Shown here: positions 1 through 37,410 of the stretch, piece by piece | How positions within the stretch are numbered: the stretch's first letter is position 1 | Layout: each line of letters begins with the position of its first letter | Origin: Octopus vulgaris | Taxonomy: Eukaryota | Length of the DNA: 64,000 nucleotides | Reading direction: 5' to 3' | Assembly (NCBI GenBank): GCA_951406725.2 | Contig: OX597821.1 | Span: forward strand, 78,554,001 to 78,618,000 | Position numbers and translations under genes: made by a program | Notes under the pieces: model-generated | Database searches by the model: none | Seen by the model: the letters and a program-made list of their open reading frames with translations, nothing else | Told to the model about the DNA's origin: nothing

Positions 1-2913
1 ACGTATAGCCCGTGGTCCAAGTCTTGGATGAACCTTGAAGCTAATGTTTAGGTCGTTTGGGCATAGTTGGCGGTATATTTTCCACATCGTACAAATGATG
101 TACCGCTCACGGCGACGCTGGAGGGAGTAAAGTTTCAAGGCTTTAAGGCGATCCCAATAATCGAGAGCAGCCATGCCTTCAATTCGTTTAGTGAGTGCCC
201 TCTGGGGTGACTCAATTCTGGAGATGTTTTGTGTTGTGTGAGGAGACCACAGTGGGCAGCAGTATTCAAGGTGTGGCCGTACAAAGGAGGAAAAAAGTGG
301 TATGATGACACCTTGTTCTCTGGACCGGAAAGTTCTTAAGATCCAGGAACTCATCCTACGAGCTATATCGACCTTCTTGTTGATGTGTGCACTCCAACTG
401 AGATCGTCATCAACAATTACACCCAGGTCTCTGATATTGTTAGAGGCTGTGAGCGGTTCCCCTGAAGGAAGAGAGTATGGCTGTTTTAGTGAGGAGTTTC
501 TTCCAAAATGCATCAGCTCAAATTTTCCCTCGTTCAGTTGCATTTTGTTTCTGTCTGCCAATTGACTCACAGCATATAGATCAGACTGGAGTTGAGTTCG
601 GTCTGCTTCTTCATTGACGATTTGCTGGAGCTTAGGTGTCATCAGCAAATATTTTCACTTTGCAGTAAAGTACGACACTGGAAAGGTCGTTTATGTAGAT
701 TATGAAGAGTAGCGGACCCAAGACAGTCCCCTGGGGGACACCGCTGGTGACTTTTGCTGGGCTTGAGTGGACTCCATCAACTACAACATGTTGTGTTCTA
801 TTCACCAGGAAATACTTGATCCAGTGTAGAACTTTTCCACGGATTCCAAGATTTGCCAATTTTGAGAGTAGGATATTATGGTCTACCCTGTCGAACGCTT
901 TACTGAAGTCAAGATATATAACATCAGAGTTCGAACCTGTTCCCAAGGCTTTGAGTACATCTTCAATGTGGTGTAAGAGCTGTGTTAGACAGTCCCTGCC
1001 ACAGCGAAAGCCATGCTGATTTGCATTTAGGAGTTTGTGGGTCTCCAGGAAGTCAGCCATCCTTGATCTTAACACTCTTTCAAACACTTTGATGATGTGG
1101 GAGATGAGTGAGATTGGGCGATAGTTGAGTGCGAGGGATCTGTTTCCCTGTTTGAAAACCGGGATGACTGACTGGGATAGAAACTGTTTTCGTATATAAC
1201 CTGCATCTAACGAATTTCTCCAGAGGTTGGTCAGAGGGACTGCAAGTTGGTGTTTACATTCCTTCAGGAGACTAGCGGGGAATCTATCAGGGCCTACAGC
1301 AGAGTAGTATTTGACCTCATTTATTGCTGCTATGATGTCAGTGGGAGTGAAGGTTATGTCTGCAATTTTGTGTTGGGAGTCAACTTCGTTCGCTTCTCTT
1401 ACGTCAATATCAGTGGGAACACTAAAGACAGAGCAGTATTGTTTCTGCAGTATTTCTGCCATTTCTTTAGCAACGTGTTGGGGAATGCCGTTAGCATCAA
1501 TCAATGGCCCAATGGGTGAGACAGTGGTTCTATGCTTATTTGCATAGGAATAGAACACTTTTGGGTTCTGTTTGATGTTTTTGATTACCCACTGTTCCTC
1601 CGCAGCTCTTTGATTTTCAATGGAGGTTTTCATGTCGTTCTGCAGATGAAGTTTTTCCAGCTCTAGCCTTTTCATTGTTGTTGAACGTGGATGTTGTTTG
1701 TGGGAATATTTTAATTGGTTGATTTTTTTGTTAAGTCTTTTGATGCGCCTGATGAGTGTTTTCTTCTTTTTAGGGAGCCGATTTCTGTTTGTGTTAGTAG
1801 ATTTCGTGGGAGCGTGTTTAGAGCATGTATATGTGACAATGTTTTCAAAGTGCTGCCATGCGTTCTCAATATGGGTGGAATTGAGAGTAAAAGACCAGTC
1901 GATGAAAGACAGATCCTTTCTGATTGCTCCCCAGTCCGCTTTGTGGAAGTTTATGTTATCAAATGAGTGCCATGGAGTGGGATTGGCTGGTTTGGTTTTT
2001 TATGTGTCGGGAATTGAAATTGCAGAGTACCATGTCGTGATCTGAGAGGAGAGTTTTTTCAACTGGAATACTGTGAAAGAAGCTAGAGTGCTTGGTCAAT
2101 ACCAGATCCAAAATCGTTTTATTCTGTCTCGATGGTTCGAGCACAAGCTGAGTCAGGAAGTATTCATCCATTAGATTAAAGAGAAGTTCCGCTGCTGCTC
2201 TATCTGATGTAGAGCACTTGCCTAACTTTAGAGTATTTGTGGGCCAGTTCACATGAGGGAGGTTAAAATCATCCATCACTAGTATGTTTCCGGAGTGGTA
2301 CTTCCGAAGGAAGGACTTGACTTTGCTAAGGCACTCTTCAAAGCACTTTAAAGGTGCTTGGGGAGGCCTGTAAAGACCAACAAATGACTATGTCCTTGGC
2401 CTTGCTGAATAGTGATACAGATTCACAATAGCCATTGGAAAATATGTCCTTGGCATCAAGTGAGAAGGAGTCATGGATAAAGATGGCTGTCCCTCCCTTA
2501 TTTCGGTTTGTACGATCCGCACGAACAATGGTGAAATCTTTTATTTTCACCTCGGCGTCTATATGGGTGTTGTTCAAGTGAGTCTCGGTAAGGATAAAGA
2601 AAGGGAAGCAATGTGTCGTTTCGGCAAGCCAACTCTCTATATATGGGATCTTCCATTTTTGGGCAATAATTGATGGGTTGATGCCACGTACATTTAATAG
2701 GATTGTCGAGGTAAGTGAAGTTTGATGTTTGCATTGTTCTAAGTTGTTCAGTGGTAACAATGTGGGTAGTTCTTGTATGGAGCTGTGTGTGTATGATTTT
2801 CTTGTTGGTAGTGGGTGTGTGGTCCTCGTGATTTGCATAGTTGGTTGCTGATAGCTCGTTGGATCTCCTGGCTTAGGTCGGCCTTCATATTTTCTAGGTA
2901 AGTCAGTAAAAAA
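1..2913 (-). pseudogene. LINE ORF2 (APE endonuclease + reverse transcriptase) with at least 3 frameshifts
   Basis: Fragments 2338-2838, 1959-2279 and 632-1675. After FADDT a 1-nt insertion creates TAA; the shifted frame resumes KLQQIVNEEADRTQLQSDL. Confidence 0.88.
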
Positions 2914-4016
2914 GAGTTACCACTTTGGTTTGCCACTTGGTCGGAGGATACATATTTCATGTTTGTGTTATTTGGTGTTATGGTTTTTTCATGGTTCTGT
3001 CTTCGTTGTTTGATTGTAGGAGGGGAAACGTGGTTGTATGCTGCTTTTATTGTTGTTGAAGATCTCCTCTGTTGCTGTTTATATATATTTTGTGATCGTT
3101 CGGTGCCCCTCAGATGGCGGTGGTTGCATTCTGGGTTCAGGCACATCCTCAGTGACACAGAAGTTTGGCACAGTTTAGGATGAAAGAAGGTGCATCTATT
3201 GCCTTTTGTACATCCATATTTGGGGTCAGGACCATGGATTCTGTATTTAGGACAGTATTTGGGGTGGGAGTGAGGGCCGGTTTTTCCCGTTATACCGTAT
3301 GGACAGGTGCCCTTAACAAGTCTACGACATAGGGTGGGATGGGAAAAAGCACAGCGTCCCTTGTTGTTGTTGCCGCTGGGGCCAAATTTACAGTTGCCTT
3401 GAGCATAGTAACGGCAGGGTGTTTGATATGGGTGTATGGGTGATTTTTCTATAGCAGAGTGTTGTTGTTGCTGTAGCAGCAGTGAAACTTGACTTGCAAC
3501 AGCAGGGCTAGCAGGTGGAATAGGGTCAGGTACTGGTGACGTAGTAGCAGAGACAGGCTGGTGTGGTAGTGAGTCCTGTGGAATGGGTGAAACTTGACTT
3601 TCAACAGCAGAGCTGGCAGGTGGAATCGGGTCAGGTACTGGTGATGTAGTAGCAGAAACAGGCTGTTGTGATAGTGAGTCCTGTGGAATGGGTGGAATGA
3701 GGTCAGATGTTTGTTGCTGGCTATCGAGTCGCTGAAGTGATCCCTGACCTGTTGGAGTTGGGTCATTTGGTGCACTACATTCATTGACAAGGATTGCTTT
3801 TAGTGTTGCCATGTGCGTGTGAATAATAGGAAATATTCTGACAATCTCTTTTGTTTTATTTTCTATCTGTTTTACAGATCTGTGAAAGGATTGTTTTGCT
3901 AATTTTTCAGCTATTTTACTGTAAACATTAGCTTCATTGTGGTGAGTGTACCAAGCGTTTATCATTGCAGTGATTTCATTTTCAACCCAGTGGCGTTTTT
4001 GAATATTATCGGCCAT
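2748..4016 (-). CDS. LINE ORF1 protein: Myb/SANT-like N-terminus, Pro/Ser/Gln-rich linker, four CCCH-type zinc-finger motifs
   Basis: Uninterrupted ORF with first ATG at 4016 (MADNIQKRHW). WVENEITAMINAW..YSKIAEKL..RSVKQIENK pattern, then repeated C..C..C..HP units (CRYYAQGNCKFG..CAFSHP etc.). Confidence 0.8.
   Translation of the reverse strand: MADNIQKRHWVENEITAMINAWYTHHNEANVYSKIAEKLAKQSFHRSVKQIENKTKEIVRIFPIIHTHMATLKAILVNECSAPNDPTPTGQGSLQRLDSQQQTSDLIPPIPQDSLSQQPVSATTSPVPDPIPPASSAVESQVSPIPQDSLPHQPVSATTSPVPDPIPPASPAVASQVSLLLQQQQHSAIEKSPIHPYQTPCRYYAQGNCKFGPSGNNNKGRCAFSHPTLCRRLVKGTCPYGITGKTGPHSHPKYCPKYRIHGPDPKYGCTKGNRCTFFHPKLCQTSVSLRMCLNPECNHRHLRGTERSQNIYKQQQRRSSTTIKAAYNHVSPPTIKQRRQNHEKTITPNNTNMKYVSSDQVANQSGNSFLLTYLENMKADLSQEIQRAISNQLCKSRGPHTHYQQENHTHTAPYKNYPHCYH
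2907..2913 (-). promoter_or_regulatory. Candidate -1 ribosomal frameshift heptamer T_TTT_TTA joining LINE ORF1 to ORF2
   Basis: ORF1 codons TCT TTT TTA. The -1 frame has TAA just upstream and is then open into MQITRTT..LNVRG. Confidence 0.55.
3483..3693 (-). repeat. 105-bp (35-aa) in-frame tandem duplication within ORF1
   Basis: PIPQDSLSQQPVSATTSPVPDPIPPASSAVESQVS followed by PIPQDSLPHQPVSATTSPVPDPIPPASPAVASQVS. Confidence 0.9.
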
Positions 4017-4460
4017 ATTCAGTGGGACAGTATTACACACTGTACGTTAGTTATTGATGAAAAGTTTGTGTCGATATATTCGGAAATGCGTGGCTATATC
4101 TGAGTGTGTGTGGGAGAGTTCAGTGTATATAGTACAAATCAGGATGAGCGCTGAGTTTAATACAGATCAAGGAAAAAGAATTGTACTCACGGGGCTAGTT
4201 TTAGAACTAGTCTTGGGTTTAGTTTTGGTTTAAATTTCTTTCTCCAGGTTGTATATAAATTTGTATAAATTTATCCTCCGATGGTAGTAGAAGAGTAGAA
4301 TAGTAGAATTGAAGAATTCAAAAGTACTGGGACTAAAAACAATGAGAGTTTCTGCTGGCTTGAGTTGAAATATGCTTCTTTGGCTACTGACTTTCACCGG
4401 AGCTATGAAAAGTACGTCTTGTCACGACGAATGCCTTTGATATACATACATATGCCTTTG

Positions 4461-4501
<41 letters not shown>

Positions 4502-5424: not shown

Positions 5425-8400
5425 ATTATGGTAGTGGGCATCAATCGGTCACGTGAGGTCTTGGATCTGTGACCGAAGAAATCGAGTCAGCTCATGATGT
5501 CGGTGCAGCGCCTGTTGTGCTGTACAGGCCCATACAGGAGAGACAACCACGCAGACACTGATTGCTTTCTATGGATTTTTCCTTCCGTCGAATGTGCTTT
5601 TCTTTGTGGGGCGCGTTCCTGTTTTTCTACCGCTCCCTTTATCCCCTTTCATCGTATTTGTCTCCAGCGTGGGCGATCATTTGAGACCTCCTCCCATCTC
5701 AGGACGGCCAGATCAAGCAACTTCATATCCCTCTAACAGACGTCTCTGAAACAGCGAAGAGGTCGTCTTCGTACTCTTGTGCCGTTGGACAGTTCCACAT
5801 ACAGGAAGATTTTGGTATCCTTCCGCCAGGCATGCGATATACATGACCTATTCAGTGCAGACAACGCTGCAGGAACAGGGTGAGTATACTGGGTACCTTG
5901 GCGTGGTTGAGGACTTTGGTGTTGGGGATGTGGTCGGTGCACTTGATATCCACGATGTATCTCAAATTACGAAGGTGGAAAACACCACTCCTGTTTGGAG
6001 TAGAAGCTCTACGTTCCACTGCCGTAAAGTAGCGTGCTAAGGACTCACGCCTTATAGACTGCAATCCTGGTATTTGCGGCCAGTTTTCTGTTTTCTTAGA
6101 CTCTCTTTATAAGCCTACCAAACATGGAGGATGCTTGTCCAATTCACCAATTGATCTCAGGGTCTAGGGAGAGGTAATCGCCGATGGAAGATCTGAGGTA
6201 GGTGAATTCATAGACTACCTCCTGCTTGTAGTTGTTGATGGTGGTGGTGGTGAAGGAGTGCTTGGCACTTTGGCCCAATACTTTGGTCTTCTTCAGACTA
6301 ATAGTGAAGCTGATTTCCTGACAGGCCTTTGAATGTTTGTCCACGACGGGCTGCATTTCTTCTTCAAAGTATGCTGTCAGTGCTGCGTTGTCCGCACTCA
6401 GCATTTCTCTTACGAGTACCTGGCACACTCTGGATTTTTCTTTCAGCCTCGACAGACTAAAGAGTTTACCGTCTGATCTAGTGTTAAAATAAACACCAGG
6501 ATTTGATGTCTCAAATGCATGTTTCAGTATGACTGCAAAGATGTCAAACATGCAAAGCACACAATCCTGTTTCAAGCCGCTAAGTATGTTGAATCCCTCC
6601 GAAGAAGCGCAATAAAATTGAACGACGCCTATCTTGGCGAAGACATTGAATTTTTCAGGTCGATGAAGGTGATCTCTTCTAGCTGTCAAAGAGAGATCAT
6701 GTCGAGGGTGGAATGTTTTGACTTGAAACCGCACTGGGTTTCGGGGTGTACCTTCTTATCGACTTTCTGTAGTCTGTTTAGAACCACGCGGACAAAGACC
6801 TTCATGATGATGCTTAACAACGAGATGCCTTGGTAATTCTTGCAGTCGCTTTTGTCTCCTTTGTTCTTATAAAGGACGACAATGTTGCAGTCTCTCATGT
6901 CTTGTGGTACAGATCCCTCCGCCCAGCACCTACACAATAGCTTCAGCAAGTTGCTAAGTAGAACTCTCCTTGAACATCTGATGATCTCTTGTGTGATGTC
7001 GTCCAAAGCCGGTGCTTTTCCAGTGGACAAGCCATCAATTGTTCTGCTCAGATCTTCTATGTCTGGAAGGTGTTTTACTGTGTCTAACACGCTGTCCGCG
7101 ATGTTTTCCTTGGCATAGAGTGCGGAATAATGTTTCATCAATCCATCCCTCCAGCTGCTCTATTTTGCCCATGATAACTTCACTTGATCTGGATTTGAGC
7201 GGAGTTACCTTGCTCTCGGTTGGGCCGATTGGCTTTCTTGCTACGCTCATGCATTCCACGAATATTGCCCGTGTCAATCGACAGATTGTTATCTACACAA
7301 TTGTATACGGTAGTCATTTGCACATCATCTCACTATCTTCTACATGCTGTTCCTTGCGGATGTTAATGCTTGCAGCGTTGTCCTAGTTGGTTGGTGTTTG
7401 TGCTTCAGCAGGGCAGCACGCTTCTCCTTCATACGGGTATTGAACACTTTCCAGCTCGCCTCAAACCAACCTTGTGTCATTTCCCCCCTCCTCCTAAAGG
7501 CCCAAAGTGCAGAGCAATTGATGACGTCTCTGCGAGTCCCATCTCTGTGGAACATTACCAGTCGGTGGGGCTGCATGAGGGGCGACTTCTAACGCCATGA
7601 GAAATGCGTTTTAGTTGGATGTTGACGTTCTGCTTGCTTGGTGTCTTGGCACAATGCATCATTTTTGGTTGGGGAGTGTTCTGAAAAAAAACCCGTGTCA
7701 GGAGTCATGTGAAAATCAGCTATAGCTGGTGCCAGTGCCCTGAGTGAGGGCGACGCCCAGGGACCCTGTGTTATGCTTTGACCTGCAAGTAGGTATGGTG
7801 ACACATAGTCCATGGAGCATACAGAGCTCTAACAACCGTTGCCTCTTTTCACTCAAGTTGCCAGCCCCATACTGAACCAAACACCCAGACCAGGAGTCGT
7901 GATCAGCTCCCACTCTGGCGTTGATGTTGCCAAGTAACACCAGCTATTCTCCATTTTGGATCGCGTGTAATTTTCCTAGAGAGCTGATCGTAAAACCTTT
8001 TCCTTGGCATCTTGTGAAGAATAGAGAGTGCAAGCATAAGCGCTGATAAAGTTGAGAGGCCAAACAGAAGTGAGAATATTCGCTCCAAACCATCACCGTT
8101 GAGTTTTACCAGCTTCAGCAGAGAGTTCTTCACAGCAAAATCGACACAATGCTCTCTGATTTTATCTGTGCTTTCCCTTGTTAGAAAAAAGTATACTCTC
8201 TTCCACGAAATGTCCCCAAATCTGGGGGCCTCGTTTCCTGGAGTATTGTAATATCCACTCTGATTCATAGCAGTTCCTTGTTGATCACTGCTGTCTTGCA
8301 TGTATCGCTGATCTTTTGAAGGTTATCTGAAGGCCAGTTTTCATGGTCCTTATGTTCCAGCATCTGAGCCTGAATGCTGGCATTTTTTGCGTTGTTTGTT

Positions 8401-8640
8401 TGCTTTCTGTTCGTTTTTATTGATGCAATATTTACAACTCACGATTTGATATATTAGTTTCCCTAAGTCCCACGCACCCACTGGAACAGGTGGACTGTAA
8501 CCTTGACAGTGCCTAACCGGATGGGGACTGCCCAGCTTGAGGTAGCTGTCCATTAAGGCACAATGGCTTCTCCCTCCGTGGAAAACGGAGCCTAGTGGAA
8601 AACAGACCCTAGTTCTCTGCAGGCTTAAACCGGTAGGTTG
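5425..8640 (-). mobile_element. Degenerate RTE-clade LINE, near full length
   Basis: WNIRTM, LLGNINARVG, KGDKSDCKNYQGISLLS, ADNAAL, ISLKKTKV, FTYL motifs across broken ORFs; C-terminal Cys/His motif near 5500. Confidence 0.88.
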
Positions 8641-10101
8641 ATGGTTTCCGTGTGTTATTGCTGCGGTTAGACAGCGCTAGAGTGTCTGATTATATCCGAA
8701 TATCTCGTGGAAAAAGTGTTTTCATAGGAAGTGGAGTGAGGAGATTCAGAAAATGCACACGGGTCGGGTTTATATCCTCATAACATTCGGGAAAATGTGT
8801 ATTTTGAATGAGAATTTCGAAAAGTGCATTTCAGCGTGAGTAGAGTACGACAATATCAGAGTTTAATATTGAAATGCAGACTGCTGGCATAGCACACATA
8901 CATACTGACACACATATTTGACAAGAATTTCTGATACAATCCGAATCTAAACCGACTGAACTGTGTATAGAGAAAATTTCATTAACAAATGTTGTTTCTG
9001 AAACATATCATGAGAAGAAGTTCTTTGTGGCACATATATGAAGAATGATACGAACTCTCGAGGGTTTCTTAGATTTGAGGGAAATTAGGATGCTTTATAC
9101 ATAAGATATAGCTGCCATGTAGTGGTTTTCTCGTTGGTTCATACATACATACATACATACATACATACATACATACATACATACATGCATACATAGCTAC
9201 CGTGTAGAGGTGTTCTCGATTGTTGATATATACATACATATACATACACATACAGAGACACACACATACGCAGAGAGACAGACACAAACACACACGCACA
9301 CACACATACATGCGTAAAGAAATTGGTATACTCACCCGCATGTGACCTACCAAATTTGTTACCTCACAATAAACATTCAGAAATATGGATATTTTTCTAA
9401 GACGTAATTTTTTATAAATATGCTTCTAGTGTAGATTCCATCTATAACTGAATTTGTTGTGAAAAGATATATTCGGGGCTGTGGTGGTGGTGGAGGAGCA
9501 AATTAAAATAATTCAAACTGATTGGCTTTCTTGTCTTCACAATGAGTATTTTTAAATGTGAATTTCGATAAATAACTTCCAGAGTGTGTAGATTACGATT
9601 ATATCAGGAGTGAACATGGAAGTATAAATAGTGGGATGGGTCACATGCTTTGCTGACCCTAATCATATGCTTTCGAAAAATTTATAATCACAGCAAATTC
9701 CAATACAATCTGAATCGACACCATATTTACACTATTTGAAGCGTATATGTAGATGTTTATTAAGGTTATGAGTAAAGAAATGCGTTGAGGCACAACGGTG
9801 TAGATATTCTTCCTTTAAATACAGCTTGTCATGCAATACAAGAAATCTATAGTAGACATGCATAATTTTAAATAATAATAGTAGATATATAATCGAAAGG
9901 ATCTCTGAACTCTAAACGGTTTTTCTCTCGCCGTTTTTTTTGTTGTCACTCGCTCACTATTTTTCCTCTTATTCCTTTTTGTCGAAGAGCTTAGGATCGA
10001 AACTTAAAGGACTTTTCCATTTTTTCCGAGCGTTAAACTAATACGCCTGCTTGTCGTCCTTATGACTGACTTCGTCTTTTGTTTTTCTGTATATATATAA
10101 A

Positions 10102-16329: not shown

Positions 16330-18531
16330 TGAGTTGTGTGTTCATATTTAGTTGGGGGAGAAATTGTTGATGAAAAATGCCTCTTTATTCAGCCTTTGTT
16401 GCATTGTGGTGTTCTGTTCTTTGTGAATGTTGATTCTTTGACGGAGCGAAAATCCTGTTTGTCCAATATAGAGTTTACCACATCCTATGCATGCCATGAC
16501 ATAGATTACATTTGCTGAGGCGCAGGTAAAATTTGAGTTGATCTTAAATATTTCTCCTTGTTTGAATTGGAATTCTGAAACCTCCAGAAGGTGGGGGCAT
16601 GTTCCACAGTTAGAACGTCCTCATTTTGCCACTTTTGGCTCAGTAGTTAGTGTGTAAATTCTAGCGCTGGTTAATATTCTTTTCAGTGACTTTGGTTGTT
16701 TTTTATAATTTTATATGAGCTTAAAATTTCGTTCATTGTTTTGTCTGCTGTGAGGATGGGAAGGTTTTGGCTGATGATGTTGAAGGCTTCGTTGTTTCTG
16801 GGGTTATGTGCGGAGATGTACGGGAGTATTTTTAAGTCTTGTTTAGTATTTCGGCTAGTTTTCCTTAATCTTTGTATATCTATTTCCTTAGCTCTTTTGA
16901 TGCCTTCATTTACTAATGAGATCGGGTATTGTCTTTTAGTTAGTGTAGATCTAAGTTATGGGAGTCTATGTTCACGAGTGTATGTATCGGAAACTATGGT
17001 GCAGATTCTTTTTGCTAGGTTAAAGGGTATGTTGATTTTTATGTGTTTGGGGTGGCAGGAGTTAAACAAAAGGTATTGTTTAGAATCTGTGGGTTTATAA
17101 AAGATGTCTGTTTCTATGAGGTTGTTAACTATTCTAATTAAGATGTCTGGAAAAGGTAGTTGCTTACTGTTGTGTTCCATAGTGAATTTTATATTGCTGT
17201 GTATGTTGTTGAGCATTCTTTTGAAATCAAGGAGTTGATCCATGCTATCTTGCCAAAGTATGAAGCAATCATCTATATATCTCTTCCAGTTCTCCTTTAA
17301 ATAGCAATTGAAAGAGGCGCCATATTTTTCTAGTGATGATTGGTATAACTTAAGTTCGTGGTAACCCATTACGAGGTTTGCAATCACTGGAGCAGCTCTG
17401 GTCTCCATTGCAATTCCGCATTTCTGTCGATAGTAAGTAGTATCGAACAAGAAATGATTGTTCAACAGGACGAATTTCAGTGCTTCAGATCATAAAATTG
17501 TGGTTAATTCGTCCTGGGATCTCTTCTGGGTATTTTTCTAGCCAAAATGTGATTGCTTCTATACCATAGTCGTGTGGGATATTAGTGTATAGATTCACCA
17601 CATCGAAAGACACCAGTAGAGTCCCGTCCTTTACTGTCTTCAGGAGGTGGTTCAGCATGTCTAATTCATCTCTGATATAGCCTTTCACATATTTTAAAAG
17701 AGGTTTGAGTAATATGTCAAGGAAGTTACTCAAACGGTGGGTTTCGCAAGAAAGACCAGCTATGATGTGTCTGAGTTTGAGGTCAATAGGTGGAGGGACC
17801 TTAATGCATAAGCTTGTAGAGACTTTGCAGGCTTCACAAATGAGTGGATTTTTATGTATCTTGGGTAATCCGTAGAATAGACTAGGACTGTATTTGAAAT
17901 TAGATAGATAGTCGATTTCATGTGTTGTAAGATCCTTTCCATGAATTTGGACTAAGGAGGATAAATTTTTCAGTGTTTTCTGTGGGCTGTAATATGTTAG
18001 TTTTTCATAGTAAGTATTATTTTCCAACATGGAAAGTATTAAATTTTTGTAGTACTCTGTATCCATCAAAACTACCGCACTTCCTTTGTCGGCTTCTTTA
18101 ATAGTGAGGTTTATGTCCTTTTTTAGCTGGACAAGGTCTTTCCATTCATTTAAATTAAGGTTAGATTTGATATGTTGTTTTGGAATGGTATTGTAAGGAA
18201 AACAAGTTATGTGATCACAGAAAACATCAAGTGCTTTATTTCTACCTTTTGTAGGATGGTACTCACTTATATTTTTCACTATTGAGTCATCTTCACTGGT
18301 GTAGTTGTAAAGAGCTTCTGTGAGGCGTAATTTTCGGCAGAAGTCCAAAGTATTGTCCTTAATTTTATTTGGGTTCGATCTGCGGGGGGTAGGGGTAAAT
18401 TTTAGACCTCTTGCTAGGATTTTGATTTGTATAGAACTCAGGATTTTCTTTGACAGGTTGATTATTTTCGGTTGGACTTGTTTATTTGTTTCCATTTCAC
18501 ATCTCTGTTTCTCTGGTTTGCATCTAAAAAA
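16330..18531 (-). pseudogene. Penelope RT + GIY-YIG endonuclease ORF with stops and frameshifts
   Basis: ORFs 17485-18495 and 16956-17465, plus the hand-translated GIY-YIG region. Confidence 0.88.
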
Positions 18532-19560
18532 TGGTTGTAGTATGTGGATTGTAGTGGAAGGTGAGTATTTTGTTTGGTTTGCTGAGGGAAACGCGGGTGT
18601 AAATTGTATCTATGGTAGTATGTTTGTGGTGGAGTGGTTGTGTAGTGTACTGGATTATGGTTGTACTGAGGATTGTTATATCGTCTGTGGCTAATGTAGT
18701 CTGGGTTTAATTGATTTTTAATATTGTGATATGGTTGGAGGGAGAGGTTATGGTATCTAGTCATGTCCCGTCTCGCCGACCGCCTGAAGTGGCTGTGTTG
18801 GGGGTAAAGTCTCGGAGGCAAGTTATTCCTGGTAGGAAGTGGTTCACCAAAACTTCAGTCAGTCTGGGGGTTTCGATGAAATCTTTGGTTTGCATGTGAG
18901 ATACCCCGAAGATCAAGTCTAGATTTACCCGCGTGGGTTGAATTATTGATAGCCACCCGACAGCCATTTGGGAGAGCAAGTCAGTCAGAGAAGGACGAGT
19001 TGCGTACCTAGACCGTCTGTGGTTAGTGTTAAATGCACGTGGGGTCATTTCTGTGTCTGTTTTTGGTTTATTTTTCTTCAGGAAGGGGTTATCCGATGCG
19101 TTTTCTATGTTAAACTGAGTTTCGTAGGTATTAAAGAAATTGGCTTGTTTATCCCAGCGTTGTAAGGAGTTAGTTTCTTCATCCACGCAAGTTGTTTTCC
19201 ATAGTTTAAAAACACTTTCCAAGCGGAGACCGTCCGTAAGTTTCTTTAATTCGTTGTAAATCTCCTCATCTGTTTTTAACTTTTTGTTCACTGCTTAGTG
19301 CTCTAAGCTTAAGGAGTTCAATTTCTGTCTTCATTGTTTCCAGTGCAAGTCTTTCTCTTAATTGTCTTTGTTTGGGATACGCTTAATTTGGAATTTGCGA
19401 GGTAAAATTATTGGTGTAGAATTTAGCCAGCGTTCGTAGATTTCTGCCTTGTGATTGTTTTTAATCATATTCCAAAAAGTATATTTTCTGGCTTTAATTT
19501 TTTTATTCCATATGTGGATAATGCGGTTTTTAATAGAAAGTGTAAGTGTGGAGGGATTGC
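18462..19560 (-). pseudogene. Upstream ORF of the Penelope-like element (frameshifted; helical N-part, N/P/R/Y-rich C-part)
   Basis: Hand translation IWNKKIKARKYTFWNMIKNNHKAEIYERWL..PRKFQIK and QLRERLALETMKTEIELLKLRA leads into ORFs 18761-19291 and 18462-18821. Confidence 0.6.
18525..18531 (-). promoter_or_regulatory. Candidate -1 frameshift heptamer T_TTT_TTA joining the upstream ORF to the Penelope RT ORF
   Basis: CAT TTT TTA GAT in the upstream frame; the -1 frame reads FFRCKPEKQRCEMETNKQVQPKIINLS. Confidence 0.55.
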
Positions 19561-34069: not shown

Positions 34070-34780
34070 ATTCTTTCTTCAAATTTTTTTCCGTTTCTCG
34101 CCGAGTGTTTTCCGTACACCTTGGGTAGAGAATCTTATTGTAGCATTCCCAGGTTACACGCGCAAATTCACAGGTATAATATGTATTAAAAAATTAATAA
34201 ATAAATAAATTCAGGATTGGATGTTGTTTTCAAAGCGATAATGCTCTTCTCATTACATGAGCCGTTCCAGTTAATACCATTTTTTGCACTTCCTGTAGGG
34301 ATGGTAAGCCTGGTATCATTTTCAAATAGGTTTCAGTACCTCTTTTTTTTGTCATTGCTAGAGATCCTATAATCACTGGTACTGTAGTCGCCTTGAGATG
34401 ACACATTTTTTCAATTTCTATTAGCAAGTCTTTATATTTAGTAATCTTGTCAAATTCTTTCGCCGCTATATTGTGATCGCAAGGAATACTCATGTCAATT
34501 AATAAACACATCTTTTTTGTCTGTTCTTTTATAATAATATCCGGTTTATTAGCTTTTATTGTTTTGTCGGCATGTACGGGAAAGTCCCATAGAATCGACA
34601 CATTTTCTCCCTCAGTCAAAACTTCAGGATGGTGTTTATACCATTTGTCAGCGGTTTTGATTTTATAATGCCGACATATTGTCCAGTGTAAATAATAGCC
34701 GACTCTGTCATGTCTTGCTTTATATTCTACAGGTGCTAAGACTCTACACCCTGAGATTAGGTGGTCTATAGTTTCAATCT
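34070..34780 (-). mobile_element. R4/Dong-clade LINE 3' fragment (subfamily B) with restriction-like endonuclease
   Basis: ETIDHLISGC..RHD..KPDIII..LIDMSIP..KYKDL, i.e. end of the CCHC motif plus PD-(D/E)XK. Confidence 0.88.
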
Positions 34781-34808
34781 TATTATTATTATTATTATTA
34801 TTATTATT

Positions 34809-35361
34809 GAGTGAGCGAGCAGAGCATGCCATCAAAGTGACACTGGGGTAAAATATACGAAGCCCAGTATACCCATCATGACTACCCGTCTGATAAGGGT
34901 ACACCAGGCACATGCATCACAACCATATGTGCGCGACATGGTGATCTCATATCAAGATAAACAGCACATGACCTTGCAGGTGGAGCCCAGTTAGAATTTT
35001 CTTCAGATCGAGTAACCCATCCCGCTCAAAAGGTTCCTGAATAAGGGTTGTTTAAGGACGTTGAACGAAACACCCATGTTTCCAGAGGTGAATTATTCAA
35101 ACCCCAAGGAATCCTTCTCAACACATGGCTATGATGCTCCCCCACTACTTCTGCTCGTGATCAGAGATGCACATATCGTCAGCCACTAAGGGACATGCTC
35201 AACTGGTTAAGGTCAAACAACTGACAAGCAAATCTGTGGTATAGAGCAGAATATTTGCTGTAGCCCATCTTTTATACCAAGACAAAACAATATGCATGAT
35301 AACACTTCCAATCAGTTAAGATCAGAAGCCATGAGAGCCACTGCCTGGTACTGCATCAGGG

Positions 35362-35364
<3 letters not shown>
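34809..35364 (-). mobile_element. ~555-bp (TAA)n-associated element, copy 4
   Basis: Nearly identical to copy 3 but full length. Confidence 0.85.
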
Positions 35365-35454
<90 letters not shown>

Positions 35455-35812
35455 CATTATTCCTTCAAACTATCTTCCGTTTCTCGCCGAGTGTTTTCCG
35501 TACACCTTGGGCAGAGAATCTTATTGTATGCATTCCCAGATTACACACGAAATTTACAGGTAAAATATGTATTTAATAAATAAATAAATTCATGAATGGA
35601 TGTTGTTTTCACAGCGATAATGCTCTTCTCAGTACATGAGCCGTTCCAGTTAACACGATTTTTTGCACTTCCTATAGAGATGGTATCATTTTCAAATAGG
35701 TTTCAGTACCTTTTTTTATCATTCCTAGAGATCCTACAATCACTGGTACTGTAGCCGCCTTGAGATGACACATTTTTCAATTTCTATTAGCAAGTCTTTA
35801 TATTTACTGATC

Positions 35813-35815
<3 letters not shown>
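35455..35815 (-). mobile_element. R4/Dong subfamily B short 3' fragment
   Basis: Same 3' UTR as 34070-34230, between (TTA)n tracts. Confidence 0.8.
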
Positions 35816-35877
<62 letters not shown>

Positions 35878-35898
35878 ATATCCGTATATTTTTCAGGA

Positions 35899-36223
35899 AT
35901 GGCAACGTCAACTGATTATCATTTGTTTCTCAAATTGATGCTAGCTTTTTTTCTATTTGTCGGCGCTCCCATAATTTGCAAAGCAACATTTAAAGAGAGT
36001 AATTTCAAAAGAATTACTAAATCAAAATGCTTAAAAGGCGAATATAATATAACTGAAAACGTGGCATCTCGTATACAGTGTGCAATTCTGTGTTTATCAC
36101 AGTATGATTGCGGCTATTTCACCTATTATAATGGCACATGTCACATGTATCGTACGTTTTATAAGAATGAACTTGAAGATTATGATTGCGACTGCTCCTC
36201 ATATATGTTGCTTGATGAAACGG
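35899..36223 (+). CDS. Host gene coding exon 1: signal peptide + PAN/apple-like domain
   Basis: Acceptor tttttcag|GA ATG; hydrophobic LFLKLMLAFFLFVGAPIICKA; SRIQCAILCLSQYDCGYFTYYNGTCHMY Cys spacing; donor G|GTAGGT (phase 1). Confidence 0.85.
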
Positions 36224-36386
36224 GTAGGTAAATCCGATTATTCTTTATTTTTATCCTTGTTGCACAATATTTCCATCATTAACACTATTTAATGGGTATG
36301 TATGTATGTATGTATGTATGTATGTATGTATGTATGTATATATATATATATATATATATAATTATAATAATAATAATAATAATAAC

Positions 36387-37410
36387 TAACGTTACCCTTG
36401 ACCAGCAGAATGTCATAAAAGGGTTAGACCCAGCGGAGAGCTACAAGTACCTAGGGTTTATTGAAGTGGACGGAATAAGGCATTCAGTGATGAAGGAATG
36501 GATCAGGAGAGAATGTTATCGCATGCGAGAAACAAGATCGAAGTGATCAATGCTTTAGCCATACCAGTCGTGACTTACAGTTTCAATATCGTTAGCTGGT
36601 CAATTACTGAAATATGTAATCTTGACACAAAAATACGACAACCGTTGACAATGCATAGAATGCACCACCCTAAGGCAGATGTAGAACGACTTTATCTGCC
36701 AAGAAAAGACAGAGGCCGTGGACTTTTGCAACTGGCAATAACAATGAAGATTGCCACAATTGGCCTAGATACCTACCTGAAAAACTCTGAGGACTGGATG
36801 TTAAAACTTGTTTCAAAACATGAAAACAAGAAAACATCATACTCAGTAACAAAACAGGCAAAGGAATATCTAAGTGAATTCCGAATACAACAAATTTCGG
36901 TATTACACACATACGAAACAAGCGCAGAAAAAGCTAAGCACACGAAAACCCGTGCTAAAACTGCTGCCTTAGATATTCTGATTGATAAATTGAAAGAAAA
37001 ACCTCTTAATGGCAAATACCTAAAGAGAGCGAATAATGCCGATGTTGACAAAGCCCTGACTCATCAATGGCTAATGGCCTCTGGTTTAAAATCTGAAACA
37101 GAAGGGTTTATCATAGCTGCTCAAGATCAATGCCTACCTACAAGGAACTACCAGGCCAACATATTAAAGAACAGCAGTAGCCCAACATGTGTGTATGTCA
37201 ACAACAAAATGAAACCATTGATCATGTTGTCTCCAAGTGCAGTCTTCTTGCGCCAACAGAATGTCTCAACAGGCATGATAGAGCTGCACAATACATTCAC
37301 TGGGTAATTTGCAAAAGCCTGCACTCGCCCCATGATAAAATCTTGTGGGAACACAAACCACCTCCAGTGCTTGAAAATGATCACGTCTCACTCCTCTGGA
37401 ACTTCACCAT
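36387..37410 (+). mobile_element. R4/Dong-clade LINE internal fragment (intronic)
   Basis: YKYLG, HPKADVERLYLPR..GRGL, LKSETEGFIIAAQDQ, C..C..ETIDHVVSKC..RHD. Confidence 0.88.

Follow-up and report, generated by a model that had tools for sequence, protein, structure and literature searches.

We propose that −1 ribosomal frameshifting on a U_UUU_UUA heptamer yields an ORF1–ORF2 fusion protein in the lineage of a CR1 LINE found at the start of the analysed window (the whole stretch of 64,000 nucleotides), and from comparison of sequences we estimate the probability of this reading at about 0.8. The translation of ORF2 in LINEs is a long-open question that has been settled for few elements (L1 and SART1). 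If true, the proposal would bring a retrovirus-type frameshift into an animal CR1 lineage as a third route to ORF2, would explain ORF2s that have no AUG and whose annotation usually starts at an incorrect internal methionine, and would predict a reverse transcriptase fusion protein bearing RNA-binding fingers. Young intact copies exist, two families have no AUG before the catalytic motifs, and the site seems functional without the usual RNA structure. The gag-pol-style fusion of the original prediction is supported as a sequence-based reading, by the conserved in-phase heptamer together with the AUG-less families 2 and 3 described below.

The element in the window is a full-length but dead copy on the reverse strand (positions 1–4435, as aligned to the copies L080, L070, L064 and L068; the 5′ end is approximate). 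Its 5′ UTR, with a (TA)n run ahead, covers positions 4017–4435, and its 3′ end with a short tandem-repeat tail lies about 350–370 bases beyond the window start. ORF1 (2748–4016, 422 aa; ATG at 4016–4014, TGA at 2750–2748) is intact. ORF2 consists of an APE endonuclease (1962–2703, interrupted by 1-nt insertions near 2384 and 2001) and a remainder that includes the reverse transcriptase (1–1999, interrupted by a 1-nt insertion near 636); these three insertions, which the original prediction did not remark on, break ORF2, hence the copy is dead.

The element carries both the APE endonuclease and the reverse transcriptase in ORF2 and, at its 3′ end, the short tandem repeat that is a feature of the CR1 clade. 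Its reverse transcriptase stretch matches, by eye, entries of the supplementary alignment available for PMC10294476 that are classed as CR1 in Table S7 and placed in CR1 by the published tree, which indirectly supports the assignment to the CR1 group made at the outset. Among these data, the octopus clusters O.sinensis_156, _25 and _201, classed in Table S7 as Jockey/CR1, have a reverse transcriptase that resembles by eye those of families 1 and 2. Identity with Proto2 was considered and rejected, since the Proto2 references differ in the reverse transcriptase and the matched entries are classed as CR1.

ORF1 begins with a Myb/SANT-like domain (3831–3995, reverse strand; PF13837, E 8e-7, over the curated cut-off), followed by an array of CCCH-type zinc fingers (3114–3425, reverse strand; matches to zf-CCCH families under their curated cut-offs) whose Cys and His columns are invariant in the alignment and whose predicted model has pLDDT >90. 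The C-terminal part is predicted to form a long helix that starts at a Phe-Leu dipeptide (2829–2918, reverse strand; helix 178–207 of a 233-aa model). The low-complexity middle of ORF1 contains a 111-base direct duplication (3482–3697).

The heptamer lies on this dipeptide. ORF1 reads Ser-Phe-Leu at 2915–2907, and U_UUU_UUA (2913–2907, reverse strand) stands in the X_XXY_YYZ phase 54 codons ahead of the ORF1 stop. The −1 frame, which is that of ORF2, is closed one codon upstream by a TAA (2919–2917, reverse strand; changed in 7/63 copies). From 2916 it then runs without a stop across the endonuclease motif, which lies 71 codons further along (Asn 2694–2692); the intervening linker (2695–2916, reverse strand) is unconserved. 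The heptamer, its phase and the opening of the −1 frame into the endonuclease are therefore as originally described, and the overlap of the two ORFs, put at about 165 nt, measures 169 nt from stop to stop and 166 nt from the heptamer. A rival start for ORF2 is offered by an in-frame ATG (2836–2838, reverse strand; C at −3 and +4), 25 codons past the heptamer and 85 nt ahead of the ORF1 stop. A lone in-phase heptamer is weak evidence, because one to four other in-phase canonical heptamers occur within each of the five ORF1s tested; the weight of this one comes from its position and conservation.

We compared 63 distinct copies of family 1, chosen by likeness to the junction or to ORF1. In 55 of them the heptamer stands in register, and in the remaining eight it is altered by single substitutions or indels; copies inside one family share descent and hence are not independent. 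Conservation of the heptamer, its phase and the open −1 frame, by which the original prediction was to be checked, holds in these 55/63 copies and in three divergent families. A young subfamily has an intact ORF1 and an ORF2 frame of 1019–1028 aa whose opening lies one codon ahead of the heptamer, so that the junction layout is that of an active element. Across the families, intact ORF2 frames of 1019–1070 aa are found in L067, L068, L070, L074, L075, L113 and L249. Two copies, L039 and L040, have in common an internal deletion that fuses ORF1 past the heptamer in frame to the middle of the endonuclease.

U_UUU_UUA stands in the same phase at the start of the overlap in all four Phe-Leu families that were read as DNA (identity of ORF2 between them 35–61%), three of which (families 1, 2 and 4) come from one genome and the other (family 3) from metagenome contigs. 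In family 2 (ORF2 37% identical), 25/26 copies carry the heptamer, the −1 stop lies two codons upstream and the first in-frame methionine is residue 142. Family 3 (contigs L145 and L146; ORF2 36% identical) also has the heptamer, with the −1 stop one codon upstream and the first in-frame methionine at residue 185. The first methionines of both families lie beyond the positions aligned to Asn14 and Glu43 of L1 ORF2p, residues with a catalytic role. In the Zorro3 endonuclease, the substitution N17A lowers mobility to <5% (PMC1965478, available text).

The search that brought up family 4 used the endonuclease and took no account of the junction. Its ORF2 is 61% identical to that of family 1, and the heptamer is in register in 58 of the 62 copies that span the site; six further copies are 5′-truncated. 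The ORF1 stop is overlapped by an AUG, or lies within a few codons of one, in family 4 only, this being absent from families 1, 2 and 3. Three copies at separate loci (L184, L201 and L205), which represent one haplotype, have ATA for this ATG and an open ORF2 frame; they could have been mobilised in trans. Family 4 may use two routes of translation.

The fifth and more distant element, L149, is the exception among the five families read at the DNA level, the heptamer U_UUU_UUA being found in 4/5, and as such counts against the proposal. It is without Phe-Leu and has an in-frame ATG and, seven codons into the −1 overlap, the heptamer A_AAA_AAC, which is among the most shift-prone sites (PMC5009743, part available). 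Chance alone, however, also gives 1–4 such heptamers per ORF1. Searches with the ORF1 alignment returned three metagenome loci, one of which (L147) stops short of the junction, and no match in the genome and viral contig collections. The ORF2 alignment gave 28 and 2 loci in the collections, and among the six that were read L149 alone has a CCCH-bearing ORF1 and the junction. No natural single-ORF relatives were found among 1,748 long candidates, which is a weak test.

The families also differ at the N-terminus of ORF1, where families 1 and 4 have the Myb/SANT-like domain in place of a PHD-like Cys cluster that is seen by eye upstream in families 2, 3 and L149. It resembles the one described for CR1 ORF1 types I–V (PMC4120745, text available), where type V is the class for ORF1s of no assigned type; the terms CCCH, frameshift and overlap do not occur in the main text of that paper, as far as available. 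In family 4 (ORF1 at L252:1174–2409, reverse strand) there are a poly-Gln tract and a duplicated last finger only, the other fingers being absent. This family is nevertheless young and abundant.

The nearest −1 stop ahead of the heptamer lies 1, 2, 1 and 8 codons away in families 1, 2, 3 and 4, respectively, and from the heptamer the frame stays open for 43–89 codons up to the endonuclease; the chance of such an open run is 0.004–0.018, 0.010, <0.0001 and 0.024. In these elements the −1 overlap of the ORFs spans 120–280 nt. With the amino acids taken as fixed and each element's own codon use applied, the three codons that the heptamer requires have a chance of 0.036, 0.012, 0.011 and 0.013, the product of which (~6e-8) overstates independence because the families are related. 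Changes between lineages near the site preserve the phase: insertions are of 3 nt, and a Ser to Thr replacement keeps the third U.

At the protein level, an ORF1 search against 1.84 billion representatives yielded 1,473 matches (protein clusters at 50% identity), the best 150 of which were analysed; a separate second search gave one homologue only. Of these best 150, 7 sequences that do not show the finger pattern and 17 whose tails are short were set aside, which left 126. A hand-picked alignment of 92 sequences (A1), whose tails were already known, was left out of the counts. Among the 126 full-tail homologues, 117 have Phe-Leu (114) or Phe-Phe (3) at the site, in a tail that is otherwise only 1.4% Phe; the dipeptide is missing in nine, which counts against the proposal. 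In most homologues the zinc fingers lie 37–82 residues upstream of the site.

The residue before the dipeptide is informative, since U_UUU_UUA needs a preceding codon ending in U, which bars Glu, Gln, Lys, Met and Trp. These five residues occupy that position in 3/117 homologues compared with a background of 25.7%, and one position earlier they are found in 41/117. The ratios between similar residues point the same way (Asp 34:Glu 0, Asn 11:Lys 0, His 15:Gln 3). Helix capping could bias the preceding residue, because the dipeptide opens the predicted helix; with the cap residues D, S, N, T, G and P removed, the figure is still 3/28 vs 49% (p 2e-5). Part of the protein conservation of Phe-Leu is structural on the predicted model, in which it opens a helix. 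Four sequences without Phe-Leu (P0020, P0107, P0121 and P0059) have Asp/Asn-Phe-Gln/Arg at the helix start, and Glu-Asp-Phe codons could read G_GAU_UUU, an umbravirus shift site.

According to another explanation, which we regard as unlikely, translation of ORF2 begins, through reinitiation or internal initiation, from an AUG of its own (2838 in this copy), and U_UUU_UUA is there only because Phe-Leu is conserved at the helix start. The ATG is indeed kept in 59/61 readable copies of family 1, so that family 1 alone cannot decide, and in 65/68 readable copies of family 4, where it lies 7 nt ahead of the ORF1 stop, a spacing like that of stop-start junctions and in favour of reinitiation; in the table available in PMC2699510, pneumovirus junction AUGs stand up to ~60 nt before the stop. 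The cap-like residues at the predicted helix opened by Phe-Leu also suit this explanation, and the C-terminal residue is C, Y, F or W in 40/117 homologues against a background of 7%, a bias that might be explained if some families place an AUG at the stop. However, families 2 and 3 have no AUG ahead of the catalytic motifs, a sub-lineage of family 4 has lost its ATG, constraint on the protein leaves the choice among synonymous codons open, and the context of the ATG at 2838 is poor. This ATG, named in the original prediction as the alternative, therefore exists in frame as stated but fails as a general start of ORF2, given the two families that lack an AUG before the catalytic motifs.

It is very unlikely that ORF2 is instead reached, in the style of mammalian L1, through termination-reinitiation that takes place near the ORF1 stop and needs no AUG. 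In L1, ORF2 can start with any sense codon (PMC1965478 and PMC5009743, parts available), and the ORF1 stop falls at the first endonuclease strand in subfamily 1B and in families 2 and 3. In these same elements, however, the stop lies on the conserved Asn or no more than four codons from it, so that a reinitiating ribosome would have to restart upstream, and both the heptamer and the opening of the frame at the heptamer are left unexplained.

The least probable explanation, also very unlikely, is that the U run works by polymerase or reverse-transcriptase slippage, or splicing, an altered RNA or DNA copy giving the fusion: copies that join the frames through an altered run or a nearby indel do exist (L061, L073, L180, L240 and L242), but each is a singleton (L061: 1/40 scored), as homopolymer mutation or assembly error gives, the codon phase of the run and its final A would be unnecessary for slippage, and, as a weak point, the contigs have no joint across the site except for subfamily deletions. 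The singleton joined copies fit a need for both products and also plain homopolymer error.

A 3′ stimulatory RNA structure 5–9 nt past the heptamer is usual in −1 frameshifting, although not universal. The original prediction could not confirm one, and none was found here (fold at the heptamer of the window's element, z +1.04). No hairpin, pseudoknot or 3′-end pairing common to the families was found. Compared with shuffled sequences, local folds give no signal in families 1, 2 and 4 (a single 40-nt window of family 2 has z −2.1), and only the family 3 junction folds better (z −2.5 to −2.8). The pseudoknot scan was positive in one of five elements, weakly, for a 4-bp AU stem in subfamily 1B that is absent from the sister subfamily. 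Pairing of the heptamer region with the 3′ end of the element did not exceed shuffles in 5 and 12 tests (0/12 stood out), the 3′ ends of L146 and L149 being incomplete, and three elements had no match in Rfam. LINEs probably need very little ORF2p. The HIV-1 U_UUU_UUA shifts at ~0.1% without structure (PMC3561942, available text).

Under the proposed frameshifting, a small share of ribosomes would slip back one base at U_UUU_UUA. Ribosomes that stay in frame would produce ORF1p with its predicted C-terminal helix, and for those that shift this helix would be exchanged for an unconserved linker of 40–90 residues and ORF2, giving a product in which the ORF1 N-terminus and CCCH fingers are joined to the endonuclease-reverse transcriptase and from which the predicted helix would be missing. 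Because no conserved RNA structure was found, the low shift rate would be set mainly by the naked heptamer. The slip, the fusion protein and the low efficiency are likely in view of the layout, its conservation and the absence of AUG in two families. More tentatively, and with real doubt, a structure-free −1 shift might serve as a domain switch across a large invertebrate CR1 lineage: ORF1p would keep the helix, the shifted product would carry its own CCCH RNA-binding array, the fingers would tether the enzyme to its own RNA, and the nascent fingers would perhaps stimulate the shift.

The heptamer was correctly recognised at the outset as the HIV-1 gag-pol slippery site, and the available text of PMC3561942 agrees. 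The two systems are alike in the U_UUU_UUA itself, in the structural protein encoded upstream and in the polymerase in the −1 frame. They differ in that the HIV-1 site is followed on its 3′ side by a stable stem-loop and the CR1 elements have none that is conserved; unlike HIV-1, these CR1 families have no protease, integrase or LTR. Closer in kind are Dictyostelium TRE5-A and TRE3-A, which are also APE LINEs and which, according to the part available of a review (PMC5911963), need a −1 frameshift for ORF2 translation; they belong, however, to the L1 clade and to another kingdom. Mammalian L1 and silkworm SART1 resemble the present elements in having a bicistronic RNA with a low yield of ORF2, but in L1 a spacer separates the ORFs and initiation needs no AUG, and SART1 uses a UAAUG stop-start, whereas the CR1 ORFs overlap in the −1 frame.

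The −1 recoding itself is known, and its CR1 setting is unreported in the literature searched. The available main text of PMC10294476 makes no mention of frameshifting, nor does the covered text of PMC13343379, and the available part of a frameshifting review (PMC5009743) names HeT-A, TART and L1 and no CR1. Our literature search, whose scope stopped short of subscription papers and Repbase notes, found no report of −1 frameshifting in CR1.

Copies of families 1, 2 and 4 very often have (TA)n at both ends (window 4435–4500; L178, L249–L253), which suggests insertion into TA microsatellites. Families 1 and 4 (L070 and L249, last 80 bases) have a near-identical 30-base segment in common within the 3′ UTR, and their tail units are similar; the common segment is likely a recognition signal for the reverse transcriptase. 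Eukaryotic LINE contigs (L148–L175) lie inside several GTDB prokaryote assemblies, with Tx1-like arrays in one MAG, and are likely host contamination. Elsewhere in the window there are other decayed retroelement frames (5460–8700 and 17485–18609 on the reverse strand, and 34230–37307), named by eye from their translations as an RTE-like LINE, a Penelope-like reverse transcriptase and CRE/R4-like fragments.
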